DNA of 38,707 nt from a virus (taxonomy: Duplodnaviria; Heunggongvirae; Uroviricota; Caudoviricetes), in IMG/VR virus record IMGVR_UViG_2529292997_000008, positions 1 to 38,707 of that record. The stretch is one strand, 5' to 3'. Positions 7,178 to 38,707 of this stretch are shown piece after piece; the stretch's first letter is position 1; each line of letters begins with the position of its first letter. The notes below the pieces were generated by a model. It had not been told where the DNA came from. It made no database searches and saw nothing but the letters and a program-made list of their open reading frames with translations. Made by a program: the position numbers and the translations under genes.

Positions 7178-7468
7178 ATGAGCGTTACAATTATATATGG
7201 TAAATGTGATAGCAAAATGAATGCCAGGGAACGCAGAAGGATAAAAAGAGAAAACGAAAGAAAATCATCACCTGCAATCAATAAAACAGACAATGTGGAT
7301 AAAGCTATTCGATTTGCAAACGAGGAAAGATGCAAACCAAATAGCATTAAAGAACGTCGCAAAGGATCAGTAAAATGGTATACGGAAAATGAAAGCGGCA
7401 GCTACTACCACGCAACGCAACCACGCCATTTAGGGGAAAAACCCCTGGATAAAGTCCGCTACCATTAA
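7178..7468 (+). CDS. N-like transcription antiterminator candidate (arginine-rich motif protein)
   Basis: 96 aa, basic; N-proximal ARM NARERRRIKRENERK; first gene after PL-like promoter and nut-like site. Confidence 0.5.
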   Translation: MSVTIIYGKCDSKMNARERRRIKRENERKSSPAINKTDNVDKAIRFANEERCKPNSIKERRKGSVKWYTENESGSYYHATQPRHLGEKPLDKVRYH

Positions 7469-7621: not shown

Positions 7622-8259
7622 AAACAGAGTTACATAAAAAGCTATGGACGATTCAGCAAACGCTGAACGCGCCGAAAAATCAGCGTAATAATTTTGGTGG
7701 ATATAATTACAGGTCGGCGGAGGATATTTTAGAGGCGGTTAAACCACTGCTTCAAAATATCACGCTGACTGTTAGTGATGAAATTGTCCTGATCGGCAAT
7801 CGCTATTATGTGAAAGCAACGGCGACGCTAAGCGACGGTGAAGACGTAATAGCGGTAACTGCTTATGCCAGGGAGGAAGAAAACAAGAAGGGTATGGACG
7901 CCAGCCAGCTAACAGGAGCAACATCAAGTTACGCGCGTAAATATGCTTTGAACGGTTTATTCTGTATAGATGATGCTCGCGATCCTGATACTGATGCTTA
8001 CGCGAAGCAGACAGGCCAGCAGCCGCGACAACAGAAAAACCCACCAAAACAACAACCGCAGCAGAAGAAAGCGCCGCCAAATCCTGATGAAGTATTAGCA
8101 CGTTTCTGTGATGCAGCAGCGAAAGCGCAGGACGCTAACAAGCTGCGTGAAATATTTGGCAAATGCTGGAAATTACTACCGGAAGGATCGGAACATCGAA
8201 TCAAGGCAAAAGATGTTTATGACATCCGGGTCGCAGAGCTTAACGGGGAGATGGGTTAA
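7615..8259 (+). CDS. erf: ERF-family single-strand annealing recombinase
   Basis: 214 aa; N-terminal ERF-like core, Q/P-rich linker, C-terminal domain; GGGAGA RBS. Confidence 0.8.
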   Translation: MVKTELHKKLWTIQQTLNAPKNQRNNFGGYNYRSAEDILEAVKPLLQNITLTVSDEIVLIGNRYYVKATATLSDGEDVIAVTAYAREEENKKGMDASQLTGATSSYARKYALNGLFCIDDARDPDTDAYAKQTGQQPRQQKNPPKQQPQQKKAPPNPDEVLARFCDAAAKAQDANKLREIFGKCWKLLPEGSEHRIKAKDVYDIRVAELNGEMG

Positions 8260-14418: not shown

Positions 14419-14440
14419 TGTTTACAAAATGGCGTCATTG

Positions 14441-14456
14441 TGTGATGCGGATCACA
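14441..14456. promoter_or_regulatory. CRP-type palindrome TGTGATGCGGATCACA
   Basis: Perfect TGTGA-N6-TCACA, lying between inverted TACAAAATGG motif copies in the 160-bp intergenic region. Confidence 0.4.
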
Positions 14457-14578
14457 TAATGGCGCTTTATTGTTTGTTCGCATGTATCCGTTTTGTATAC
14501 TTCAAACAAACAAAATGCTCTTTAAAAATCCGGTAACGCTGAAATGCGTAAAAATCACCTGAAAAAGGAGAGAGCATT

Positions 14579-15779: not shown

Positions 15780-15958
15780 AAAACGAAGTTAAAGATCTGC
15801 AAATAGATATTCAGCGCGATGAGCATGATTTAGCTACAGTCCGACAAATCCGGGCTTTTCATATGCGCGAATTGCTTGCATTGAAAGAGCTTGAGAAAAA
15901 GTTAGTCCAGTCTATTTCTGATCGTAAACAACTTATTGCTCGTTACGGGGGGAAATAA
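15776..15958 (+). CDS. hypothetical protein
   Basis: 60 aa; overlapping start/stop. Confidence 0.5.
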   Translation: MKNEVKDLQIDIQRDEHDLATVRQIRAFHMRELLALKELEKKLVQSISDRKQLIARYGGK

Positions 15959-16680
15959 TGAATTTAGAATCCATTCTGAAATTCCACTTTCCCAAATCAC
16001 CGCGATTATCAGACGAAAGCCGGGGCACATCCCCGGATGCGCTTAATACGACTGATGCGCTAACCGCTGCAGGTATGGCGCAATCGCGCGTAGAGCTTGG
16101 TTACAGCGCTTTTTTAGGGAAGATGGAACTATCGCAAGCCGAAAAACACAGGGCCGTAGTTTTGCTTACAGAGCGTTTAAGAGCTATGGCAAAAGATTAC
16201 GAATACGTCATGGAGCTGGACGAGGACAAACGCAATGATCTTATTATTCTTGTTGCCGTTTTCGCGTTTCGGGATTACTGCCAGAGTGCCGCGACAGAAA
16301 AAACTTGTATGGATTGCGGCGGATATAAATTTACGTTTGACGACTACGGAGAAAAACACCTTTGCAAAAAATGCAAGGGGCATGGAAAAGTTCGCAATCA
16401 TTGTAAACGATGCAAAGGGCGCGGCGAGATACCGGATAAAGCAGCCAGTGAAGCAGCGGAAATGCCAGTGTTCAAAACGTGCCAGCATTGCGGCGGGCGC
16501 GGGTACTCGCGTTTCCCTGTAGATCTTGTCCGGCGTGCGGTTAATCAGCTTGTATTTCCGGTAAGCCGATCAACATGGTGGAAAAAATACCGGGTTTTCT
16601 ATGAAGACGCCATCGCTGAATTGTTCAAGGAAGAGGCGCGGGCTGATAACGAAATTAAACGAGTTACGCGGGGTGAATGA
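15958..16680 (+). CDS. Cys-rich protein with four CxxCxGxG repeats; possible Q-type late antiterminator
   Basis: 240 aa; CMDCGGYK, CKKCKGHGK, CKRCKGRGE, CQHCGGRGY; sits after ninG-rusA where Q normally lies; function uncertain. Confidence 0.4.
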   Translation: MNLESILKFHFPKSPRLSDESRGTSPDALNTTDALTAAGMAQSRVELGYSAFLGKMELSQAEKHRAVVLLTERLRAMAKDYEYVMELDEDKRNDLIILVAVFAFRDYCQSAATEKTCMDCGGYKFTFDDYGEKHLCKKCKGHGKVRNHCKRCKGRGEIPDKAASEAAEMPVFKTCQHCGGRGYSRFPVDLVRRAVNQLVFPVSRSTWWKKYRVFYEDAIAELFKEEARADNEIKRVTRGE

Positions 16681-16883
16681 TGGATAAACTGGAAATAAAC
16701 GATCAGTTTGCCGTTATCTTGTTCGAAGATAAAACAGGCGGCGCATGGTGTAAGAAAGTCACTGGTGCTGAAGCACGCTTAATATTGGGTATGGCAAGCG
16801 CGTTAAATGATGGCGAATTGCCAGCCGTGCCAATTAAGCCAGTACATATTTACGGACGGAGTAACGACAATGAAAATACTTAA
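16677..16883 (+). CDS. hypothetical protein
   Basis: 68 aa track ORF. Confidence 0.45.
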   Translation: MMDKLEINDQFAVILFEDKTGGAWCKKVTGAEARLILGMASALNDGELPAVPIKPVHIYGRSNDNENT

Positions 16884-17217
16884 CATTGGGTGGCTGTATT
16901 GCGAAAACTGCGACGACGATGGCATGGTCGTAAAAACCGAAAAAGGTTGCGGCCTCATGCTGTATCAAGGTGATAAATTCGTTTGTCCTCGCTGCGGCGG
17001 CGGTGGTGAGATAGAAATTGTTAATGATATTGCTACAGCATATAAGCCATCTCGCATTGCCCTTGATGAAAAAATAAAAATTCATCCTTATTTATTACAG
17101 CAAATTATCGATCACGTATCGGCAGCCGCAATCTATAGCGGTAACAATTATCAGCGAGAAATGAACGTCAAACGTGCGATTGAGCAGTATTTCGAAGGTG
17201 ACGACAATGAAGCCTAA
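16870..17217 (+). CDS. zinc-ribbon protein
   Basis: Track ORF trimmed to ATG after GGAG RBS; CENC..(N)..CPRCGG motif. Confidence 0.5.
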   Translation: MKILNIGWLYCENCDDDGMVVKTEKGCGLMLYQGDKFVCPRCGGGGEIEIVNDIATAYKPSRIALDEKIKIHPYLLQQIIDHVSAAAIYSGNNYQREMNVKRAIEQYFEGDDNEA

Positions 17218-17476
17218 ATTAAAAGAGCATGAATTTAGGGATCTCATAAACGGAATAACCGATAAAGCTAGGATGTACTCAAATGCGCAACAGTTAAGGG
17301 CGGTTATAGTTACGGAATTAATGAAATACATTGAGCCATGCGGACCAGGCGACGAAATGACTATGGATAAGGCCATCAAGCGCCGTTCGGCTGATTGGTC
17401 GGTTAGTAACACTGGATTAACCGGATACATTGAAGGCTATAACGACTGTTTACAGGATCATGGCAATGAAAAGTAA
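17207..17476 (+). CDS. hypothetical protein
   Basis: Trimmed to ATG after GAAGGTGA. Confidence 0.45.
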   Translation: MKPKLKEHEFRDLINGITDKARMYSNAQQLRAVIVTELMKYIEPCGPGDEMTMDKAIKRRSADWSVSNTGLTGYIEGYNDCLQDHGNEK

Positions 17477-17681
17477 CCGCAAGCGCCTTGTAAGGGCATA
17501 CGATAAAGCATTAAAGGCTTTTGATGATCTGCGACACAATAAGCGCCAGCGCCGCAAATGGGCGCGTATGCTTGTTTATGAGTGGCATTATTCTGATGCT
17601 TTCATGGAAAGTGCGCCGCTATTAACACAGGAACAAGCCGACGAAGTAGCTAACGATAACGTTTATTATATGATGTGGTGA
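17460..17681 (+). CDS. hypothetical protein
   Basis: Trimmed track ORF 17430. Confidence 0.4.
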   Translation: MAMKSNRKRLVRAYDKALKAFDDLRHNKRQRRKWARMLVYEWHYSDAFMESAPLLTQEQADEVANDNVYYMMW

Positions 17682-17685
17682 TAAT

Positions 17686-18051
17686 ATGCAAATAATCATT
17701 GATTATCTTTGCCATGCTGCAAATACGCTTTTTGGTTTTTATCAACAACCATTCCTCAAAGAATGGGACGAAATGCTTAATGACATCATTGATAAAGGGT
17801 TAATAGTTGAGGTTGGCGAGCTAACGATAAAATTTAATTACGAAGGCAAAGAATATGATATATGGGTAGGTAACAGATGGTACGCATACGGGCATATTTA
17901 TTCAATTGGCGGCAAATACATTAAACGTAGCCAGGAGTTCAGGCCGCGATTCCGCACAATGCGCCGCCTGCGTGACCTGCATATGAATATATTTGAAAAT
18001 CAGGAAGCGTGTGAACTATTCAAAATCTACGGAGATAAATCATGGAACTAA
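17686..18051 (+). CDS. hypothetical protein
   Basis: 121 aa track ORF. Confidence 0.5.
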   Translation: MQIIIDYLCHAANTLFGFYQQPFLKEWDEMLNDIIDKGLIVEVGELTIKFNYEGKEYDIWVGNRWYAYGHIYSIGGKYIKRSQEFRPRFRTMRRLRDLHMNIFENQEACELFKIYGDKSWN

Positions 18052-18272
18052 AAATCTGGCAGGGTATCGACGTAGTTGATAATGAATTGTCTATGTTCGC
18101 CACTAACGGGAAACGCGTGGTGATCGCTACATGGACGCGCAACCATGATGATATAGCTTTTCGTCGCAAGGCTGCGGAGTGGCTTTTCTCTGATGAAGGC
18201 TACACGATGAATATCTCCCAGCTTGCCAGAATGAAGGATGAAAAGCTGGTTGATAGTTACACAACTGCATAG
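18042..18272 (+). CDS. hypothetical protein
   Basis: 76 aa track ORF. Confidence 0.45.
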   Translation: MELKIWQGIDVVDNELSMFATNGKRVVIATWTRNHDDIAFRRKAAEWLFSDEGYTMNISQLARMKDEKLVDSYTTA

Positions 18273-18282
18273 TGGGGCAAAT

Positions 18283-18516
18283 ATGTGTATCTATGAACAC
18301 AAGCGGGATAAAACCCGCTTTTTTGTTCGTGCTGGCGTGGCTTACCAGTATCACGACTGCGGATATATCGAGGCGCTTGCTTACGATCTGGACTTCGAAC
18401 AAGAAAAAGAATGGTTCGATTTCAAAATTTACCGGAAGCGTAAACCGACGCGCGACGAGCGACACGCTATCCGGGACTTTTTAATCAGCATAGACCGCTG
18501 GGAGACAGAGGAATGA
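18283..18516 (+). CDS. hypothetical protein
   Basis: Trimmed to ATG after GTGGGG. Confidence 0.45.
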   Translation: MCIYEHKRDKTRFFVRAGVAYQYHDCGYIEALAYDLDFEQEKEWFDFKIYRKRKPTRDERHAIRDFLISIDRWETEE

Positions 18517-18800
18517 GAGCGAAGAAAACAGCAGATCAGAAAGCGTTAGTTATCACTACAACTGATGTGTCGTTATTCACGAAGGGTGAAGAAATAGATC
18601 TTAAATTACTTTTCGGCATGTTTGAGCCACACGAAAAGCCGTGGTTCGTGCATGAAGACAAACAGGGAAATATGCGCGTAGTAGTGCCGGACAAAAACAG
18701 CGACATATTTTTTGCTATTCCAGACCCGTTACATGACGGTGAATTGCTGGCGGTATTGTTGATCGCTGATGCTGTTACTTATAAAGGGAAAGAAATATGA
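18513..18800 (+). CDS. hypothetical protein
   Basis: 95 aa; ATGA overlap. Confidence 0.5.
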   Translation: MRAKKTADQKALVITTTDVSLFTKGEEIDLKLLFGMFEPHEKPWFVHEDKQGNMRVVVPDKNSDIFFAIPDPLHDGELLAVLLIADAVTYKGKEI

Positions 18801-19024
18801 AAGTTAAATTCTTGCACGATCACGGCTACCCATCATTAAAACGCGTGGTAGGGGAAACGGTAGACGTTGTTCATTCTGATGATGTGACCTGCGTCATTTT
18901 GGGTAAAGACCTTATCGCTCACGGTGCTGATGATTACTACATTAACCCGGCGTGGTCATATACGTTTAGCCTGGGCGACTTCGTAGGCGATAAGGGGCGC
19001 GGCTTGCAAGTAGTCGAGGGTTAA
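18797..19024 (+). CDS. hypothetical protein
   Basis: 75 aa; ATGA overlap. Confidence 0.5.
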   Translation: MKVKFLHDHGYPSLKRVVGETVDVVHSDDVTCVILGKDLIAHGADDYYINPAWSYTFSLGDFVGDKGRGLQVVEG

Positions 19025-19028
19025 TATC

Positions 19029-19277
19029 ATGGACGTTTACGAAGATTTATACCTTCAAACAAATACCAGCACTTTTTATTTTTTGAAAAACGGCGTCGTA
19101 TATCGCAGCGACAACGGGGTGATAATGAAAGAGTGTTTATTTAAGCGTAAAGACCTACTCGAAGATCTGGTTTTTGCCGGGATATTTCGTAAACGTCCGG
19201 CTAACCTGGAAGAAGAAATGTTGATTGAGGTTATTAAACATGAAAATCAGGGTAAGTTATTTCCGGGCGAAAGATAA
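19029..19277 (+). CDS. hypothetical protein
   Basis: 82 aa track ORF. Confidence 0.5.
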   Translation: MDVYEDLYLQTNTSTFYFLKNGVVYRSDNGVIMKECLFKRKDLLEDLVFAGIFRKRPANLEEEMLIEVIKHENQGKLFPGER

Positions 19278-19491
19278 GGCAACAGGAAAGCGGATGGCGA
19301 TCCTGGTTAATGAAGCTAATTATATGTTTGTGCTTCAGCCGTGGTGCATAGCTGACTATAACGATGATTATCGCCGTCACGGTGCGCGGGGTGCTGTAGG
19401 GATGAAGGGATGGCAACCGCGTGACATGGAAAACTATTGTGAATGGAAATTGATAGCAAAATATACGGTCGATTATAAAGGTGTTTTCTAA
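19240..19491 (+). CDS. hypothetical protein
   Basis: Trimmed track ORF 19225; overlaps preceding gene in another frame. Confidence 0.4.
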   Translation: MKIRVSYFRAKDKATGKRMAILVNEANYMFVLQPWCIADYNDDYRRHGARGAVGMKGWQPRDMENYCEWKLIAKYTVDYKGVF

Positions 19492-19697
19492 TGTACGTCA
19501 GATGCACTGAATCAAAATCATCATGCTTTGAGGTTGGCGGAATATATACCGTAGATCACCTGACTGGTGATGAACTTAACACCCAATACATTAAAGACGA
19601 CCTCGGCGACGCGTGGCGCTATTGGGATTGCTACGCGCGTGGACACGTTACCAGTCAGTTTGGTACGGAACCGATCGCGCGTTTTGTTAAGTGGTGA
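19491..19697 (+). CDS. hypothetical protein
   Basis: 68 aa track ORF. Confidence 0.45.
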   Translation: MYVRCTESKSSCFEVGGIYTVDHLTGDELNTQYIKDDLGDAWRYWDCYARGHVTSQFGTEPIARFVKW

Positions 19698-19716
19698 GGC
19701 GTTGGACAACCATAAA

Positions 19717-19732
19717 TGTGATCTGTATCACA
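19717..19732. promoter_or_regulatory. CRP-type palindrome TGTGATCTGTATCACA
   Basis: Perfect TGTGA-N6-TCACA, flanked by AAA and A, close to the idealised CRP site; intergenic. Confidence 0.45.
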
Positions 19733-19735
19733 ATG

Positions 19736-19776
19736 TATACGAAATGGCATTGTTTCGACAGTGCCATTTTGTTATA
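19736..19776 (+). promoter_or_regulatory. inverted TACAAAATGG-type motif pair enclosing a sigma70-like promoter
   Basis: TATACGAAATGG-16 nt-CCATTTTGTTATA; TTGTTT-17-TATATA promoter inside; same architecture as 36082-36121. Confidence 0.4.
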
Positions 19777-19811
19777 TATAAGCCACGGAAAGACGGAGGG
19801 GAGGCAAGAAG

Positions 19812-19952
19812 ATGAGCGCTAACGCTAAATATCCGGCATGGGTTTTTGAGTTATACGCCCGCTACTTTGAATTGCTGGCACAAGGTGAAGAAGCATTAAG
19901 CATTGACGAGTACGCGGAGTGCTTAGGGTTTAAAGGAGACGAAGAAGCATAA
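19812..19952 (+). CDS. small protein (46 aa)
   Basis: ATG preceded by GGAGGGGAGG; below track cut-off. Confidence 0.35.
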   Translation: MSANAKYPAWVFELYARYFELLAQGEEALSIDEYAECLGFKGDEEA

Positions 19953-19995
19953 AACACGGGGCCGGATGGCCCCATCAAATCAGAAGGGTGTAATC

Positions 19996-20289
19996 ATGAA
20001 AAGCGCTAAATTTATTGCTTGCTGTTTTGTTGAAGTTCCCTATAACGATGCGTTCTATCACGCTACTTTTACCGATAAGAATGGGAATGATCACGTTATT
20101 GTCGGCAAGCGTGGTGACTGGCTTTATATAACTGATGATGATTGCATTTTCACTAAAAATCAGTTGCAAAAACTGGTTATCGGTAAACAGGAACAGGAAG
20201 GCTATCAAATCATCCCGGTGGAAAGACTGAAAAGGGAGCAGAGAATTAAACGCGCTCAAGAGGAATTAAATAACATAAAGGGTATGTGA
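19996..20289 (+). CDS. hypothetical protein
   Basis: Track ORF 19966 trimmed to ATG after AAGGGTG. Confidence 0.5.
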   Translation: MKSAKFIACCFVEVPYNDAFYHATFTDKNGNDHVIVGKRGDWLYITDDDCIFTKNQLQKLVIGKQEQEGYQIIPVERLKREQRIKRAQEELNNIKGM

Positions 20290-20290
20290 T

Positions 20291-20545
20291 ATGAAAACAA
20301 TCAGACTATGGCGCGGCAATAGCCGACTTGATGGTGAGTACATCCGCGTGATTGAAGATGTTAATCGTGGTCGGTTTTATGAATTGGCATACAGCGAAAA
20401 AAGGGAGAAAGAATATCTGAACGAATCGACCCCTATGTGGCGTAAAGTGGCTGGCCTTGCCTCAATTCTGCGCCACGGGTTTTATGCAGATCATAACACG
20501 CTAATTGATGCCGAACTGGTGACAACTCTTTACGAAGGAGAATAA
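20291..20545 (+). CDS. hypothetical protein
   Basis: 84 aa track ORF. Confidence 0.5.
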   Translation: MKTIRLWRGNSRLDGEYIRVIEDVNRGRFYELAYSEKREKEYLNESTPMWRKVAGLASILRHGFYADHNTLIDAELVTTLYEGE

Positions 20546-20548
20546 ACA

Positions 20549-20872
20549 ATGAGTAAATTTATCAGCGTTAAGGTTTTCCGTGGCAATTTTCCAGAAGATA
20601 AAGAAATTGGACAATTCGCAGGTGAACGTGGCGTATGTTTCCGTGTAGCTACTGAAGACGATGCGCACGTTAAATGCTTTCACGTATCTGAACCGCCTTT
20701 TAATGCAGACCATCTTGAAGACCTGAATAGAATTAAAAGCCTTATTTTTGCCTATCTGGCGTTCCCTGGCATAGCTGATGCTGATGTTGAATTGGTTGGG
20801 GCCGAACTGGTGGCAGAATACAAAATGACTGAAGGCGAAAACGGAGGGGTGGAAATTGAGCGCATCAAATAA
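20549..20872 (+). CDS. hypothetical protein
   Basis: 107 aa track ORF. Confidence 0.5.
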   Translation: MSKFISVKVFRGNFPEDKEIGQFAGERGVCFRVATEDDAHVKCFHVSEPPFNADHLEDLNRIKSLIFAYLAFPGIADADVELVGAELVAEYKMTEGENGGVEIERIK

Positions 20873-21107
20873 GCTGTATAAAGTCAGGTGTAAAGGCGAA
20901 TACCCTGGCTTTACGGTTGGTTGCGAATATCTGGGCCACATTGGGTACGGCCCTTTCGGTGAGTTGGGAATGAATACGATTGACGACGACGGCGACAGCA
21001 GGACGCTTGATCTTGATAGCGATGATTTCGAATACATCCCGCCAGTCACTTACCGCGTCGTCGATGATTTCCTGGCTGAACATGAAGACGAGGATGATGA
21101 TGATTGA
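20856..21107 (+). CDS. highly acidic small protein
   Basis: 83 aa; C-terminal half dominated by D/E, ending EHEDEDDDD. Confidence 0.5.
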   Translation: MSASNKLYKVRCKGEYPGFTVGCEYLGHIGYGPFGELGMNTIDDDGDSRTLDLDSDDFEYIPPVTYRVVDDFLAEHEDEDDDD

Positions 21108-21294
21108 ATGCCTTATCGCTGTGATTGTTTTGCTTTATATCGCTGGCGCGATCCTGATGTCATGTTTTATTAAGTTTAGCGGCGCTGAACCTGGTGGCCT
21201 TGAGATTCCTTTTTGGCCTGTGACTGTGTTTATCGCTTTCTTCGACGCTACGGCAGAGCAGATCAATCGAGCTATTAAGGAGCGCAAGAAATGA
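21098..21294 (+). CDS. small membrane protein
   Basis: Trimmed to ATG after GAGGA; two hydrophobic segments. Confidence 0.4.
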
Positions 21295-21470
21295 TTGAAG
21301 ATGGGGTGTACGCAACAGTAGTAGACGGGCTGTTTTACCGCGTAGAAGGTGATGATATTCGCATCCGCGTTGGCGGTGGTGAGTGGGTAGCGCCAATCAT
21401 TAAGACGACGCGAGAAACAATTAAAATATTTCTTGATGCTGGTGAACTGGTGAGGGTTAGCGACCTATGA
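21291..21470 (+). CDS. small protein (59 aa)
   Basis: ATGA overlap; N-terminus MIEDGVY resembles next ORF (MNEIEDGIY). Confidence 0.4.
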   Translation: MIEDGVYATVVDGLFYRVEGDDIRIRVGGGEWVAPIIKTTRETIKIFLDAGELVRVSDL

Positions 21471-21643
21471 ACGAGATCGAAGATGGTATCTATTTACATA
21501 AGGTATTTAACATCGTCTATTTGGTTAGAGGTGAATCGGTGATGATAAGACCTGATGATGATCCTTATTGGGAATTAAGCGACATGGATCGGTGGCATAT
21601 GCAAACATTGCTTGATAATGGCCTGATATATAGAAAGCCGTAA
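21467..21643 (+). CDS. small protein (58 aa), possible paralogue of preceding ORF
   Basis: ATGA overlap; stop lies inside the first copy of a 15-bp direct repeat. Confidence 0.4.
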   Translation: MNEIEDGIYLHKVFNIVYLVRGESVMIRPDDDPYWELSDMDRWHMQTLLDNGLIYRKP

Positions 21644-21655
21644 AGCCGTATTTGT
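21641..21655 (+). repeat. direct repeat copy 1 (TAAAGCCGTATTTGT)
   Basis: Identical 15-mer recurs at 21891-21905; both copies begin at a stop codon. Confidence 0.6.
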
Positions 21656-21665
21656 TGGGGGGAAT

Positions 21666-21893
21666 ATGGAAGAAATGGTTTTACTGTCATCAATATGGCA
21701 TCGGTTCGGAACTGAAAAAGGATACTCACCTGCTTGCTGGCTGGATAGTAAAAGCGGAAAGGAGTATCAAAACGAGTGCGAATTTAGAAGGGAGTGGCGA
21801 GGTGGTAAGGAAGTGCAAGGATATTTTGCACCAAAACACGTTGCCGCCAAATACAAAGAATGGCTTGTGCGTTTGCTTGGCCCTTATCGTTAA
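21666..21893 (+). CDS. hypothetical protein flanked by 15-bp direct repeats
   Basis: 75 aa; GGGGGGAA RBS. Confidence 0.45.
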   Translation: MEEMVLLSSIWHRFGTEKGYSPACWLDSKSGKEYQNECEFRREWRGGKEVQGYFAPKHVAAKYKEWLVRLLGPYR

Positions 21894-21905
21894 AGCCGTA
21901 TTTGT
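21891..21905 (+). repeat. direct repeat copy 2 (TAAAGCCGTATTTGT)
   Basis: Identical to 21641-21655. Confidence 0.6.
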
Positions 21906-21929
21906 AGGGCGTAAACAAACAGATTAAAA
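21902..21929 (+). promoter_or_regulatory. candidate late promoter (TTGTAG-16-TAAAAT) upstream of a terminator and the lysis genes
   Basis: Promoter-like hexamers about 30 nt upstream of hairpin 21959-21981; resembles lambdoid PR'-tR' layout. Confidence 0.35.
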
Positions 21930-21958
21930 TATTCTCTAACAATGCGAAACTGTAACTA

Positions 21959-21981
21959 CCCGGCCCAGCGCCGGGTTTTTG
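21959..21981 (+). terminator. rho-independent terminator upstream of holin (tR'-like)
   Basis: CCCGGC-CCAGC-GCCGGG hairpin followed by TTTTTG. Confidence 0.7.
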
Positions 21982-22000
21982 CTTTGTTGGAGGTAAATCT

Positions 22001-22201
22001 ATGTTCGACAAAATACGGGCGGCGTGCGCTTATGTAACAGGGACCGTAACCGCTTTTTTTGGTGCGATAACCATTAATGACGTTGCCGTCTTTGTGGGTA
22101 TCTTATCAACCATTGGCACATTTGCCGTTAACTATTACTTCAAATCACAGGAGAACAAGCGAGCGCAAGAGGAACACGACGCACGAATGGGGAATAAGTA
22201 A
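22001..22201 (+). CDS. holin, class II / pinholin-like
   Basis: 66 aa; two TM segments, charged C-terminus; immediately precedes SAR endolysin. Confidence 0.75.
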
Positions 22202-23995: not shown

Positions 23996-24064
23996 ATGTT
24001 TACTTTTCTGTTAGGCGTATTTGTTGGCATAGCTGCCGCTGTGATCTTGATATACGGACATTGA
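23996..24064 (+). CDS. micro-ORF 1 of tandem array (22 aa, single TM helix)
   Basis: MFTFLLGVFVGIAAAVILIYGH; GAGGG RBS. Confidence 0.4.
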   Translation: MFTFLLGVFVGIAAAVILIYGH

Positions 24065-24068
24065 TATT

Positions 24069-24173
24069 ATGGATGCTTACATCATCGCCGGATTAATCGG
24101 CGTTTCTGTGTTTCTTGTGGGTTCTATTATAGTTGCGCTGATAAACGTATATATCAAGTATTTGGTGGGGTGA
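24069..24173 (+). CDS. micro-ORF 2 (34 aa, single TM helix)
   Basis: MDAYIIAGLIGVSVFLVGSIIVALINVYIKYLVG; weak GGA RBS. Confidence 0.4.
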   Translation: MDAYIIAGLIGVSVFLVGSIIVALINVYIKYLVG

Positions 24174-24178
24174 AAAAT

Positions 24179-24253
24179 ATGATTGACCCGCTAATTATCC
24201 TTTCTGCCTGCGTCGCTGTATGGCTGGCGATCATGATATTCATTGAAAGCTGA
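24179..24253 (+). CDS. micro-ORF 3 (24 aa, single TM helix)
   Basis: MIDPLIILSACVAVWLAIMIFIES; GGTGGGG RBS. Confidence 0.4.
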   Translation: MIDPLIILSACVAVWLAIMIFIES

Positions 24254-24264
24254 AGGTATCCACA

Positions 24265-24345
24265 ATGAACGCATACGAAATGCTATTGCTGGTGGCTGTT
24301 ATTACAGTTATTGCCGTAGATGTTTATCGGGAGTTTAAAAAATGA
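24265..24345 (+). CDS. micro-ORF 4 (26 aa, single TM helix)
   Basis: MNAYEMLLLVAVITVIAVDVYREFKK; GAAGG RBS. Confidence 0.4.
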   Translation: MNAYEMLLLVAVITVIAVDVYREFKK

Positions 24346-24410
24346 AATGGCTTGATTTCTTTTTCCTGATCGTTGCGATTGTTCTCACTATGACAGCGCT
24401 TGCTCAATAG
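24342..24410 (+). CDS. micro-ORF 5 (22 aa, single TM helix)
   Basis: MKWLDFFFLIVAIVLTMTALAQ; GGGAG RBS; ATGA overlap. Confidence 0.4.
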   Translation: MKWLDFFFLIVAIVLTMTALAQ

Positions 24411-24418
24411 GTGAAAGC

Positions 24419-24493
24419 ATGAACGCTATTGATATTATGTTGATCGTGTGTACCGTTGCATTAGTTATTATTGGGGTGATTATCAATGTCTGA
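24419..24493 (+). CDS. micro-ORF 6 (24 aa, single TM helix)
   Basis: MNAIDIMLIVCTVALVIIGVIINV; AGGTGA RBS. Confidence 0.4.
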   Translation: MNAIDIMLIVCTVALVIIGVIINV

Positions 24494-24554
24494 TGGTGAT
24501 TTCTTAATCATGGCTATATGCACGCTGTTAACTGTTATTGTTTTCTTCGCGTAA
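24486..24554 (+). CDS. micro-ORF 7 (22 aa, single TM helix)
   Basis: MSDGDFLIMAICTLLTVIVFFA; GGGGTGA RBS; overlaps ORF 6 stop. Confidence 0.4.
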   Translation: MSDGDFLIMAICTLLTVIVFFA

Positions 24555-24563
24555 AGGTAAACA

Positions 24564-24647
24564 ATGAAAGAATTATTCGATTGGTTGGAAGTATTAACAT
24601 ACTGTGCAAGTTTTGTTGCTTGCGTATATATCATCAATAAATATTGA
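24564..24647 (+). CDS. micro-ORF 8 (27 aa, single TM helix)
   Basis: MKELFDWLEVLTYCASFVACVYIINKY; AAGG RBS. Confidence 0.4.
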   Translation: MKELFDWLEVLTYCASFVACVYIINKY

Positions 24648-31902: not shown

Positions 31903-31921
31903 TTGATATGTTTCTGTAGCT

Positions 31922-31950
31922 CCCCGGCGCAATGCCGGGGATTTTTTTTG
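31922..31950 (+). terminator. rho-independent terminator after capsid gene
   Basis: CCCCGGC-GCAAT-GCCGGGG hairpin plus T8; near-identical hairpin recurs at 38511. Confidence 0.7.
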
Positions 31951-34261: not shown

Positions 34262-34286
34262 GGGGCCATTTGGCCCCTTTTCTTTT
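34262..34286 (+). terminator. rho-independent terminator after major tail gene
   Basis: GGGGCC-ATTT-GGCCCC hairpin followed by TTTTCTTTT. Confidence 0.65.
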
Positions 34287-38504: not shown

Positions 38505-38510
38505 ACTAAA

Positions 38511-38538
38511 CCCCGGTGCAATGCCGGGGTTATTTTTG
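38511..38538 (+). terminator. rho-independent terminator after tape measure gene
   Basis: CCCCGGT-GCAAT-GCCGGGG hairpin plus TTATTTTTG; near-copy of 31922 hairpin. Confidence 0.7.
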
Positions 38539-38540
38539 TG

Positions 38541-38568
38541 CACAGAAAACCCCCAGCTAGGCTGGGGG
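38541..38568 (-). terminator. candidate convergent terminator for minus-strand transcription from beyond the window
   Basis: CCCCCAGC-TAG-GCTGGGGG hairpin with T-run on the minus strand only. Confidence 0.4.
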
Positions 38569-38707
38569 TTCCGGAAAGCTTTCAGCTTTAAGCCAGTTAT
38601 TAAAACCCCTTTTGATTTGTTAAAACACCTTGCGGTCTGGCAACTGCAAGTGTCAAACAAGAAATCAAAAGGGGGTCCCAATGGGGAACGAAAAGAGCTT
38701 AGCGCAC

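Follow-up and report, generated by a model that had tools for sequence, protein, structure and literature searches.

The stretch of DNA analysed here, referred to as the window, comprises 38,707 nucleotides of a phage genome (Caudoviricetes; IMG/VR record IMGVR_UViG_2529292997_000008, positions 1 to 38,707), and all coordinates given below are positions of the window. Directly upstream of the holin gene, positions 21902-21980 probably constitute a Qλ-type late-gene cassette, consisting of a late promoter (PR'), a Q utilization site (qut) and an intrinsic terminator (tR'), on which the antiterminator Q would act in trans. Based on sequence comparisons, this reading is assigned a probability of roughly 0.7. 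The mechanism proposed is that of the known Q switch; it is the layout, with Q apart from the unit, that differs from the lambda-like phages.

Elements of the late unit

The elements of the unit and the gene that follows it are listed below; SD denotes the Shine-Dalgarno sequence.

21902-21907, + strand: -35-like TTGTAG (3/6 match), with the variants TTGTGG, TTGTAT and TCGCGC (no -35) in relatives
21908-21924, + strand: promoter spacer of 17 nt, read directly
21913-21924, + strand: conserved spacer part AAACAAACAGAT, candidate Q-binding element proposed from its conservation
21925-21930, + strand: -10 TAAAAT of the putative late promoter PR' (5/6 match, invariant)
21931-21937, + strand: pyrimidine-rich discriminator ATTCTCT, 7 nt, complementary to the holin SD
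21938-21943, + strand: AACAAT, predicted σ70-dependent pause element at the position of the λ/P22 AACGAT, invariant
21938, + strand: predicted transcript start (+1), by analogy with P22
21951-21954, + strand: predicted pause region TGTA, +14 to +17, from comparison with the consensus T-N-Y-G
21958-21980, + strand: intrinsic terminator tR', stem +21 to +39 (21958-21976), T-run to +43
21989-21993, + strand: holin SD GGAGG, read directly
22001-22201, + strand: holin, first late gene (Pfam Phage_holin_2_3, 4.5e-16)

The hairpin ACCCGGC-CCAGC-GCCGGGT, which is followed by TTTT and GCTTTG, was called by the terminator scan and forms seven pairs, six of them G-C. Folding of the terminator segment (81 nt) yielded z=-5.1, and the predicted short RNA (47 nt) gave -17.2 kcal/mol with z=-2.9. 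In GenBank, the same hairpin is annotated as a terminator in three relatives, namely as TERM_5 (mEp021), T9 (mEp010) and T8 (mEp044). An earlier note on this DNA, made from the letters alone, had reported a strong intrinsic terminator before the holin, and this is confirmed by the scan, the folding and the three annotations. The same note had proposed a promoter TTGTAG/TAAAAT. Both hexamers are present, but the spacer measures 17 and not 16 nt, and the -10 ends at 21930 and not at 21929. As a promoter element, TTGTAG is weaker than the note implied; it is unconserved, and a third or so of the variants described below have no -35 in its place.

AACAAT sits 7 nt past the -10 TAAAAT. In λ, the pause occurs at +16/+17, AACGAT is a σ70-dependent pause element, and the consensus of scrunched pauses is T-N-Y-G (PMC9191641). 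In the window, the T at +14 and the pyrimidine at +16 match T-3 and Y-1 of this consensus. The terminated RNA is predicted to have a length of ~43-46 nt. Lysozyme and Rz-like genes lie 3' of the holin (Pfam Phage_lysozyme, 2.1e-43; Phage_lysis, 1.1e-24).

No Rfam family was found at the late unit; the best hit, the rnk leader, reached 23 bits where 55 are needed. A minus-strand open reading frame (ORF) that spans the unit (21784-22011) is unlikely to be a gene, because indels of 1-2 nt are found in relatives within the terminator loop, its T-run and the spacer between SD and ATG.

Recurrence of the architecture in the Qλ family

One common procedure was used to extract the late units from nine phages with a Qλ-family Q. 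All nine contain a -10, then 5-7 nt, then AACNNT, and in all of them the -35 starts 4-42 nt past the Q stop codon; in eight, the stem of a terminator begins between +26 and +44. The hexamer is AACGAT in six phages, AACGCT in φ80, AACAGT in SEN22 and AACACT in Eho49. The arrangement TAAAAT-ATTCTCT-AACAAT of the window is closest in form to those of φ80 (CATCTCT-AACGCT) and SEN22 (CATTTCT-AACAGT). The lambdoid PR'-qut-tR' layout that had been suggested for this site is thus supported by nine comparable units and by an invariant AACAAT at the position of the λ/P22 pause element.

Conservation within the phage group

For footprinting, 54 related loci were reduced to 34 unique versions of the 140 nt preceding the holin, and each column was scored as variable or invariant. 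Among the columns of the predefined elements (-10, AACAAT, stem arms, T-run and SD), 3/35 are variable, compared to 31/64 elsewhere (Fisher p=3e-5). The numbers of variable columns per segment are:

-35: 4 of 6
5' spacer (upstream of 21913): 5 of 5
AAACAAACAGAT: 3 of 12, namely the central three (21919-21921); AAACAA and GAT are invariant
-10: 0 of 6
Discriminator: 3 of 7
AACAAT: 0 of 6
GCGAAA: 0 of 6
+13 to +20: 5 of 8; T14, T16 and A17 are invariant, and G15 is A in one variant
Stem arms: 2 of 14, both at the stem ends
Loop: 4 of 5
T-run: 0 of 4
SD: 1 of 5
SD-ATG spacer: 6 of 7

Conservation begins sharply at -25, and the conserved part of the spacer has invariant ends and a variable centre. 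For the comparison with λ, we took the register of its Q-binding element (QBE) to be -25 to -13. The λ QBE comprises 13 bp that are contacted at positions 1-4 and 11-13 (PMC9388147), and qut lies partly between -35 and -10 (PMC6266700). It is therefore plausible to regard AAACAA..GAT as a candidate Q-binding element, whose pattern would fit a λ-like QBE albeit without similarity to the known QBEs.

The -35 segment occurs in at least three alleles (TTGTAG/TTGTGG, TTGTAT and TCGCGC), which assort freely with the 240- and 242-aa classes of Q; this would be expected if Q recognised the invariant part of the unit. The conserved core was found in 46 of 2.9 million viral contigs and the clade of this Q in 45; 43 contigs carry both, and of the five that carry only one, four belong to two assemblies that were split. 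The core occurs in a single copy in the window and once per genome. A covariation of discriminator and SD (TTACCT/AGGTAA, TTTCCT/AGGAAA) was considered and rejected, because the combinations are mixed across genomes. More distant relatives were sought by scanning one genome per species with Q as the query, and none was found; the footprinting is confined to sequences that are ~90% identical.

The Q protein

15958-16680, + strand: Q antiterminator gene, long Qλ-family form, 240 aa, CxxC at residues 117, 136, 149 and 175

The gene product matches Pfam PF03589 with 102.3 bits (cut-off 26.7; E=1.6e-29), a family that is equated with the Qλ family (PMC9388147). Compared to the λ Q structure 7UBM (3e-39), residues 1-122 correspond to λ residues 1-123 and residues 148-238 to λ residues 117-207. 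This alignment, with 35% identity, takes in the N-terminal torus segment, the helix-turn-helix (HTH) body and the zinc-ribbon arm. An insertion of ~25 residues in the arm supplies a second CxxC pair. The arm carries an insertion at this point also in SEN22, φ80, HK225, Eho49, Klebsiella φ5.1, Brookers and 2H10, whose Q proteins contain three or four CxxC; the four-CxxC form is shared by φ80, HK225, Eho49, Klebsiella φ5.1, Brookers and 2H10. The Q proteins of λ and P22 represent the short form. The long form with the insertion is the common form of the Qλ family, and the protein of the window is typical of it. The earlier view that it is "not a typical Q", for which a profile search had been recommended, is not supported in light of the PF03589 score and the full-length match to λ Q.

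Within the group, the protein is 93% identical to mEp021_37, which is labelled "putative late gene regulator Q" in GenBank. Outside the group, identity does not exceed 37%, the value for the closest protein, SEN22 Q. Among 42 group variants, the N-terminal 60 residues, which are the torus-forming part in λ Q, and the HTH region are nearly invariant, whereas the inserted zinc-knuckle (residues 118-147; 16309-16398) is the most variable part and contains a 2-aa indel. Q is intact in all 54 loci and shows no decay. Judged by homology, it is a bona fide Qλ-family protein, and antitermination at a cognate qut is predicted.

The phage group and its early antitermination

By the similarity of its genes, the window is a member of the temperate mEp021/mEpimmI coliphage group. 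The late locus is 91-96% identical at the DNA level to those of seven group coliphages (mEp010, mEp013, mEp021, mEp044, mEp515, mEp554 and MagusPhagus), and the gene order is the same as in mEp021-type phages. The window encodes a homolog of the N-like antiterminator Gp17 (7178-7468, 93% identity), its Q is 93-96% identical to those of the group, and a nutR2-like boxA/hairpin lies near 14518. There, positions 14431-14560 contain a 16-bp hairpin (the equivalent of TERM_4), then the boxA-like GCTCTTTAA, and then a hairpin with an A-rich loop, which corresponds to the nutR2 of the group. The group records used were MH706966 and PP180001-5. Furthermore, the locus is present in 35/5,426 complete E. 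coli genomes, in a single copy each and invariably before the holin, and IMG/VR contig 2563366998_000011 is identical to the window in Q, holin and Q-holin spacing.

The mEp021 paper (PMC11893012) describes mEpimmI as a group of Nus-dependent, non-lambdoid temperate phages that is prevalent in the human gut. It mentions N-like and Q-like proteins and the terminators t1-t5, and reports the experimental demonstration of t1, t2 and t5 and of a Gp17-dependent early antitermination. The t5 of that paper is probably the hairpin of the window's late unit; the GenBank numbering of terminators begins after the repressor. Terminator, holin and putative Q are already annotated in the group records. A late promoter, a qut, a pause element and the distance between Q and the lysis genes are described neither in the group records nor in the searchable text of PMC11893012.

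Separation of Q from the late unit

16677-21643, + strand: variable block of ~24 small, tightly packed, overlapping, co-oriented ORFs (ORF list; no Pfam families)

The Q stop codon at 16680 is separated from the -35 at 21902 by 5.2 kb that contain ~24 ORFs, in agreement with the ~5 kb and ~25 small genes counted earlier. From the Q stop to the holin it is 5,324 nt in the window; the 53 related loci in which both were located show distances of 2.0-6.8 kb, and Q is adjacent to the unit in none of these 53 genomes. The number of genes in the block varies from eight in mEp021 to about 25 in others. Since the Q gene is not adjacent and a variable block lies in between, Q must act in trans. Among the options that had been offered for a remote Q, action at a distance is therefore the one favoured, with Q as a diffusible protein. 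The separation is a matter of layout and not of mechanism.

The small genes are presumably transcribed together with Q from the early operon. No Pfam family was found among the small ORFs between Q and the unit, and their PHROGs matches are all of "unknown function". A PR' directly after Q was considered at 16685 (TAAACT-N7-AACGAT). This motif is part of the next ORF and thus of coding sequence, is absent from phages with another downstream gene, and lacks a terminator; it was rejected as an unconserved chance match in coding sequence.

Several features of the block deserve mention. The two ORFs before the last gene upstream of the unit (21291-21470 and 21467-21643) are tandem paralogs that both match phrog_15318. 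ORF 18238-18516 contains a terminator-like hairpin that has a T-run (18301-18320), and a GC-rich hairpin without a + strand T-run lies between small ORFs (19956-19975; an ARNold terminator in the mEp010 and mEp044 records); both are within the early-transcribed accessory block. In mEp021, an 82-aa protein encoded in the Q-holin interval (8004-8252), upstream of the late unit, was found in purified virions by mass spectrometry, according to GenBank and PMC11893012; this would not be expected of a gene that lies outside the late operon. ORF 19029-19277 of the window also encodes 82 aa and has a similar position.

Proposed mechanism and evidence against it

According to the preferred reading, σ70 polymerase would start at ~21938 from TAAAAT, the weak -35 being dispensable. 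σ70 would then re-recognise AACAAT at +1 to +6, and the complex would pause near +16/+17. Without Q, termination would occur at the hairpin and T-run (+21 to +43) and leave an RNA of ~45 nt. Q would be made from the early operon 5.2 kb upstream, following N-like antitermination by Gp17 at nut. It may then bind the AAACAA..GAT spacer, load onto the paused complex and read through tR'. Strong + strand terminators are also present in the late region at 24086-24102, 31921-31941, 34262-34277 and 38509-38531; the stem of the one that follows the capsid gene (31921-31941) comprises 9 bp, and its T-run is T8. Strong terminators inside a late operon call for a processive antiterminator and fit a single promoter. 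Q would read through these terminators as well, so that the lysis and virion genes are expressed.

Several observations weigh against this reading. A consensus promoter scan calls no promoter at the late unit, the -35 matching at only three of six positions, whereas all comparator -35s match at 4-5/6. Promoter-like sites in the region are no commoner than in shuffled sequences. In 12 of the 34 unique variants, the -35 is replaced by TCGCGC, with neither a -35 nor a TG extension. Across the window, the motif "-10 + N5-7 + AACNNT" is not enriched (23 occurrences versus 24±4.5 in shuffles); its weight therefore rests on its position, its invariance and its recurrence in the family. Moreover, +17 is an A where the pause consensus has a G, and the hairpin starts at +21, nearer to the pause than that of any comparator. 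AACAATGCGAAA can pair with the invariant UUUUGCUUUGUUGG, which is a possible reason for its invariance. Finally, the work on mEp021 ascribes terminator read-through to Gp17 (PMC11893012).

A predicted long hairpin in read-through RNA

21896-22020, + strand: predicted long imperfect hairpin of ~125 nt, formed only in RNA that starts upstream of PR'

Early polymerases modified by Gp17 would constantly run into the unit, as Q and the accessory genes lie immediately 5' of it. The resulting read-through RNA (141 nt) is predicted to fold into a long hairpin (z=-4.0; 0/200 shuffles). Here, holin codons 4-7 are the partner of the -35 segment CCGUAUUUGU, with the terminator, the SD and the AUG enclosed between them. 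The unrelated allele b pairs instead with GUGCGCG deeper in the holin gene. For a control, the 36 nt upstream of the -10 alone were shuffled, with three alleles. For five representatives that have the common holin, burial of the SD-AUG region is greater with the native arm than with shuffled arms (a fraction of 0 to 0.025 of the shuffles attained the native value); for the second holin type, with fractions of 0.28 and 0.085, burial is not clearly above that of shuffles. Averaged over 37 variants, the start region is paired with a probability of 0.82 in read-through RNA, compared to 0.51 in RNA from +1.

These predictions suggest that the hairpin may silence the holin on RNA that reads through from the early operon, or may serve as a processing site. 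That the three unrelated alleles of the -35 segment, all of which find a partner in the holin coding sequence, serve to bury SD and AUG, so that the holin would be translated only from RNA started at PR', is a tentative idea that we consider doubtful. On such a reading the unit would be a gate with two inputs and not a plain PR'. There is only a slim chance that, as another feature of such a gate, Q in the -35-less allele would load onto arriving σ70 elongation complexes at a promoter-independent qut.

Alternative explanations

The hairpin could be a terminator only, marking the end of the early-right operon; polymerases from the early promoter, modified by Gp17 at nutR1/nutR2, would read through it into the late genes, and the leader, not being a DNA promoter in this case, would control the holin at the RNA level, by occlusion of the SD or as an RNase III site. 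The Gp17 homolog and the nutR2-like site of the window agree with this explanation, as do the experimental evidence on t1, t2, t5 and Gp17 in PMC11893012 and the scan of the interval between nutR2 and the unit, in which no convincing + strand terminator was found. The lack of a -35 in a third of the variants and the stable hairpin of the read-through RNA, whose native 5' arms bury the holin start beyond shuffled ones, point in the same direction. However, a full-length conserved Q would be left without a qut, as there is none beside Q and no second copy of the core, and the -10/N7/AACNNT geometry of the nine Qλ-family promoters would be unexplained. The same is true for GATTAAAAT, which is invariant while its fold partner TAAATCT varies in six of seven columns. 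Since the partner of the -10 in the long-hairpin fold varies, RNA pairing does not explain the invariance of the -10. Taken together, we regard a mere terminator as unlikely.

It is less probable still that Q loads, from its adjacent binding site, without a local promoter and that TAAAAT and/or AACAAT are pause elements for early elongation complexes that have retained or rebound σ70, at least in the -35-less allele. The TCGCGC allele speaks for this possibility, and so do the two tandem -10-like hexamers and the fact that early transcription must reach the unit, with Q and the small genes directly upstream and no gap. On the other hand, the occupancy of σ70 at 5-14 kb from a promoter should be low. 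The arriving polymerases would already be modified by Gp17, and the hexamers are arranged as the comparators have them, with a promoter followed by a pause element. In addition, loading at a pause close to the promoter is common to all Q proteins that have been characterised (PMC9388147).

We consider it very unlikely that the unit is a late promoter whose weak -35 is compensated by another activator, encoded among the small ORFs, with Q vestigial or serving another site. Promoters that depend on an activator typically have a weak -35 or none, and the ~24 upstream ORFs are without assigned function, but neither Pfam nor PHROGs revealed a DNA-binding or regulator domain among them, the gene set varies (2.0-6.8 kb; 8 to ~25 genes) while the unit is invariant, the unconserved DNA upstream of -25 leaves no room for a conserved activator site, and Q is undecayed. 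For the same reasons, the proposal of the earlier note that one of the small intervening proteins is the true regulator finds no support.

The upstream edge of the unit

21641-21664, + strand: upstream copy of a direct repeat, 24 nt, TAAAGCCGTATTTGTTGGGGGGAA, left junction of the ORF75 cassette
21666-21893, + strand: ORF75, optional cassette with a 75-aa gene, in 12/55 genomes, at the upstream edge of the unit
21891-21914, + strand: downstream repeat copy TAAAGCCGTATTTGTAGGGCGTAA, which contains the -35 proposed earlier and is one of at least three alleles

The two repeat copies (family D9) are 88% identical and lie 250 nt apart, and each starts at the TAA with which the gene before it ends. 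In the 12 genomes that possess ORF75, the gene is always located between both copies of AGCCGTATTTGT, and the upstream copy occurs only in these genomes. Since ORF75 is flanked by repeats, the upstream edge of the unit is a recombination junction. The ORF75 product has a weak KilA-N match (E=0.0065, below the cut-off), and the annotation in strain FAH is hypothetical protein. CGTATTTGTWGG was also considered as a regulatory site that recurs in the window. The third copy, at 24016, falls within a mini-ORF for a hydrophobic peptide of 22 aa, and the three copies seen are reached in 4/100 shuffles; CGTATTTGTWGG was therefore treated as a two-copy insertion scar.

Other features of the window

Between the lysis region and the small terminase gene, a gap that looks non-coding is filled by eight consecutive + strand mini-ORFs of 22-34 aa (23996-24647), each encoding a single hydrophobic helix:

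23996-24064, + strand: mini-ORF
24069-24173, + strand: mini-ORF
24170-24253, + strand: mini-ORF
24265-24345, + strand: mini-ORF
24342-24410, + strand: mini-ORF
24419-24493, + strand: mini-ORF
24486-24554, + strand: mini-ORF
24564-24647, + strand: mini-ORF

At the end of the window, positions 38548-38671 (+ strand) give a full-length match to the Rfam family STnc490, an Hfq-binding small RNA (146 bits; gathering score 56). It lies just 3' of the terminator at 38509-38531, which looks bidirectional.

Implications

The main value of this analysis is one of annotation: a late promoter, a pause element, a candidate Q-binding site and a tR' can be proposed for the mEpimmI records. The accessory insertion zone lies between Q and qut and not downstream of tR', as it does in the Shiga toxin (Stx) phages. 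With the zone upstream of the unit, cargo genes would be under early and not under late control. It is an old observation that λ Q acts preferentially in cis, and a Q that works in trans over 2-7 kb bears on this preference. Early read-through into the lysis cassette would pose a problem of premature lysis, to which the hairpin that buries the holin start is a possible solution.

Relation to known late control units

The late unit of λ reads TTGACT-17-TAAATT-TGACTC-AACGAT, which resembles the TAAAAT-N7-AACAAT of the window. In both phages, the -10 is followed after 6-7 nt by AACNAT at +1 to +6, with a T at +14 and a pyrimidine at +16. Both have an intrinsic terminator ahead of the holin and a separate N-like early antiterminator with nut sites. 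In contrast, the λ PR' starts 42 nt past the Q stop codon, compared to 5.2 kb in the window and 2.0-6.8 kb in the group. The -35 is TTGACT in λ, whereas it matches at 3/6 positions in the window or is absent in alleles of the group. The λ tR' lies at about +190 and the stem of the window at +21 to +39; λ Q contains two CxxC and the Q of the window four. The spacer of λ is unrelated in sequence to the spacer of the window, which holds the candidate QBE.

P22 (AF527608) shares the λ layout TAAATT-N6-AACGAT; the first A of its AACGAT is the annotated 5' nucleotide of the late RNA, and qut spans it. The terminator t-late at +31 to +59 makes P22 a compact unit like that of the window; a short terminated leader RNA is thus normal for the Qλ family. 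P22 differs from the window in that gene 23 lies directly upstream of P-late, the -35 is consensus-like, and Q is of the short form with 207 aa.

In φ80 (JX871397), pR' and a Q-binding site are annotated, and its Q (gp17) is of the long form, with the insertion at the same point as in the window. φ80 and SEN22 share with the window a pyrimidine-rich discriminator of 7 nt that is followed by AACNNT. Their terminator stems start at +42 to +44. Unlike in the window, pR' follows 41-42 nt past the Q stop codon, and the -35 is TTGCAT (4/6) in φ80 and TTTACA (5/6) in SEN22. Finally, PR' of the Stx phages gives rise to the short RNA StxS (PMC7547250), of which the predicted ~45-nt RNA of the window would be an analogous by-product.

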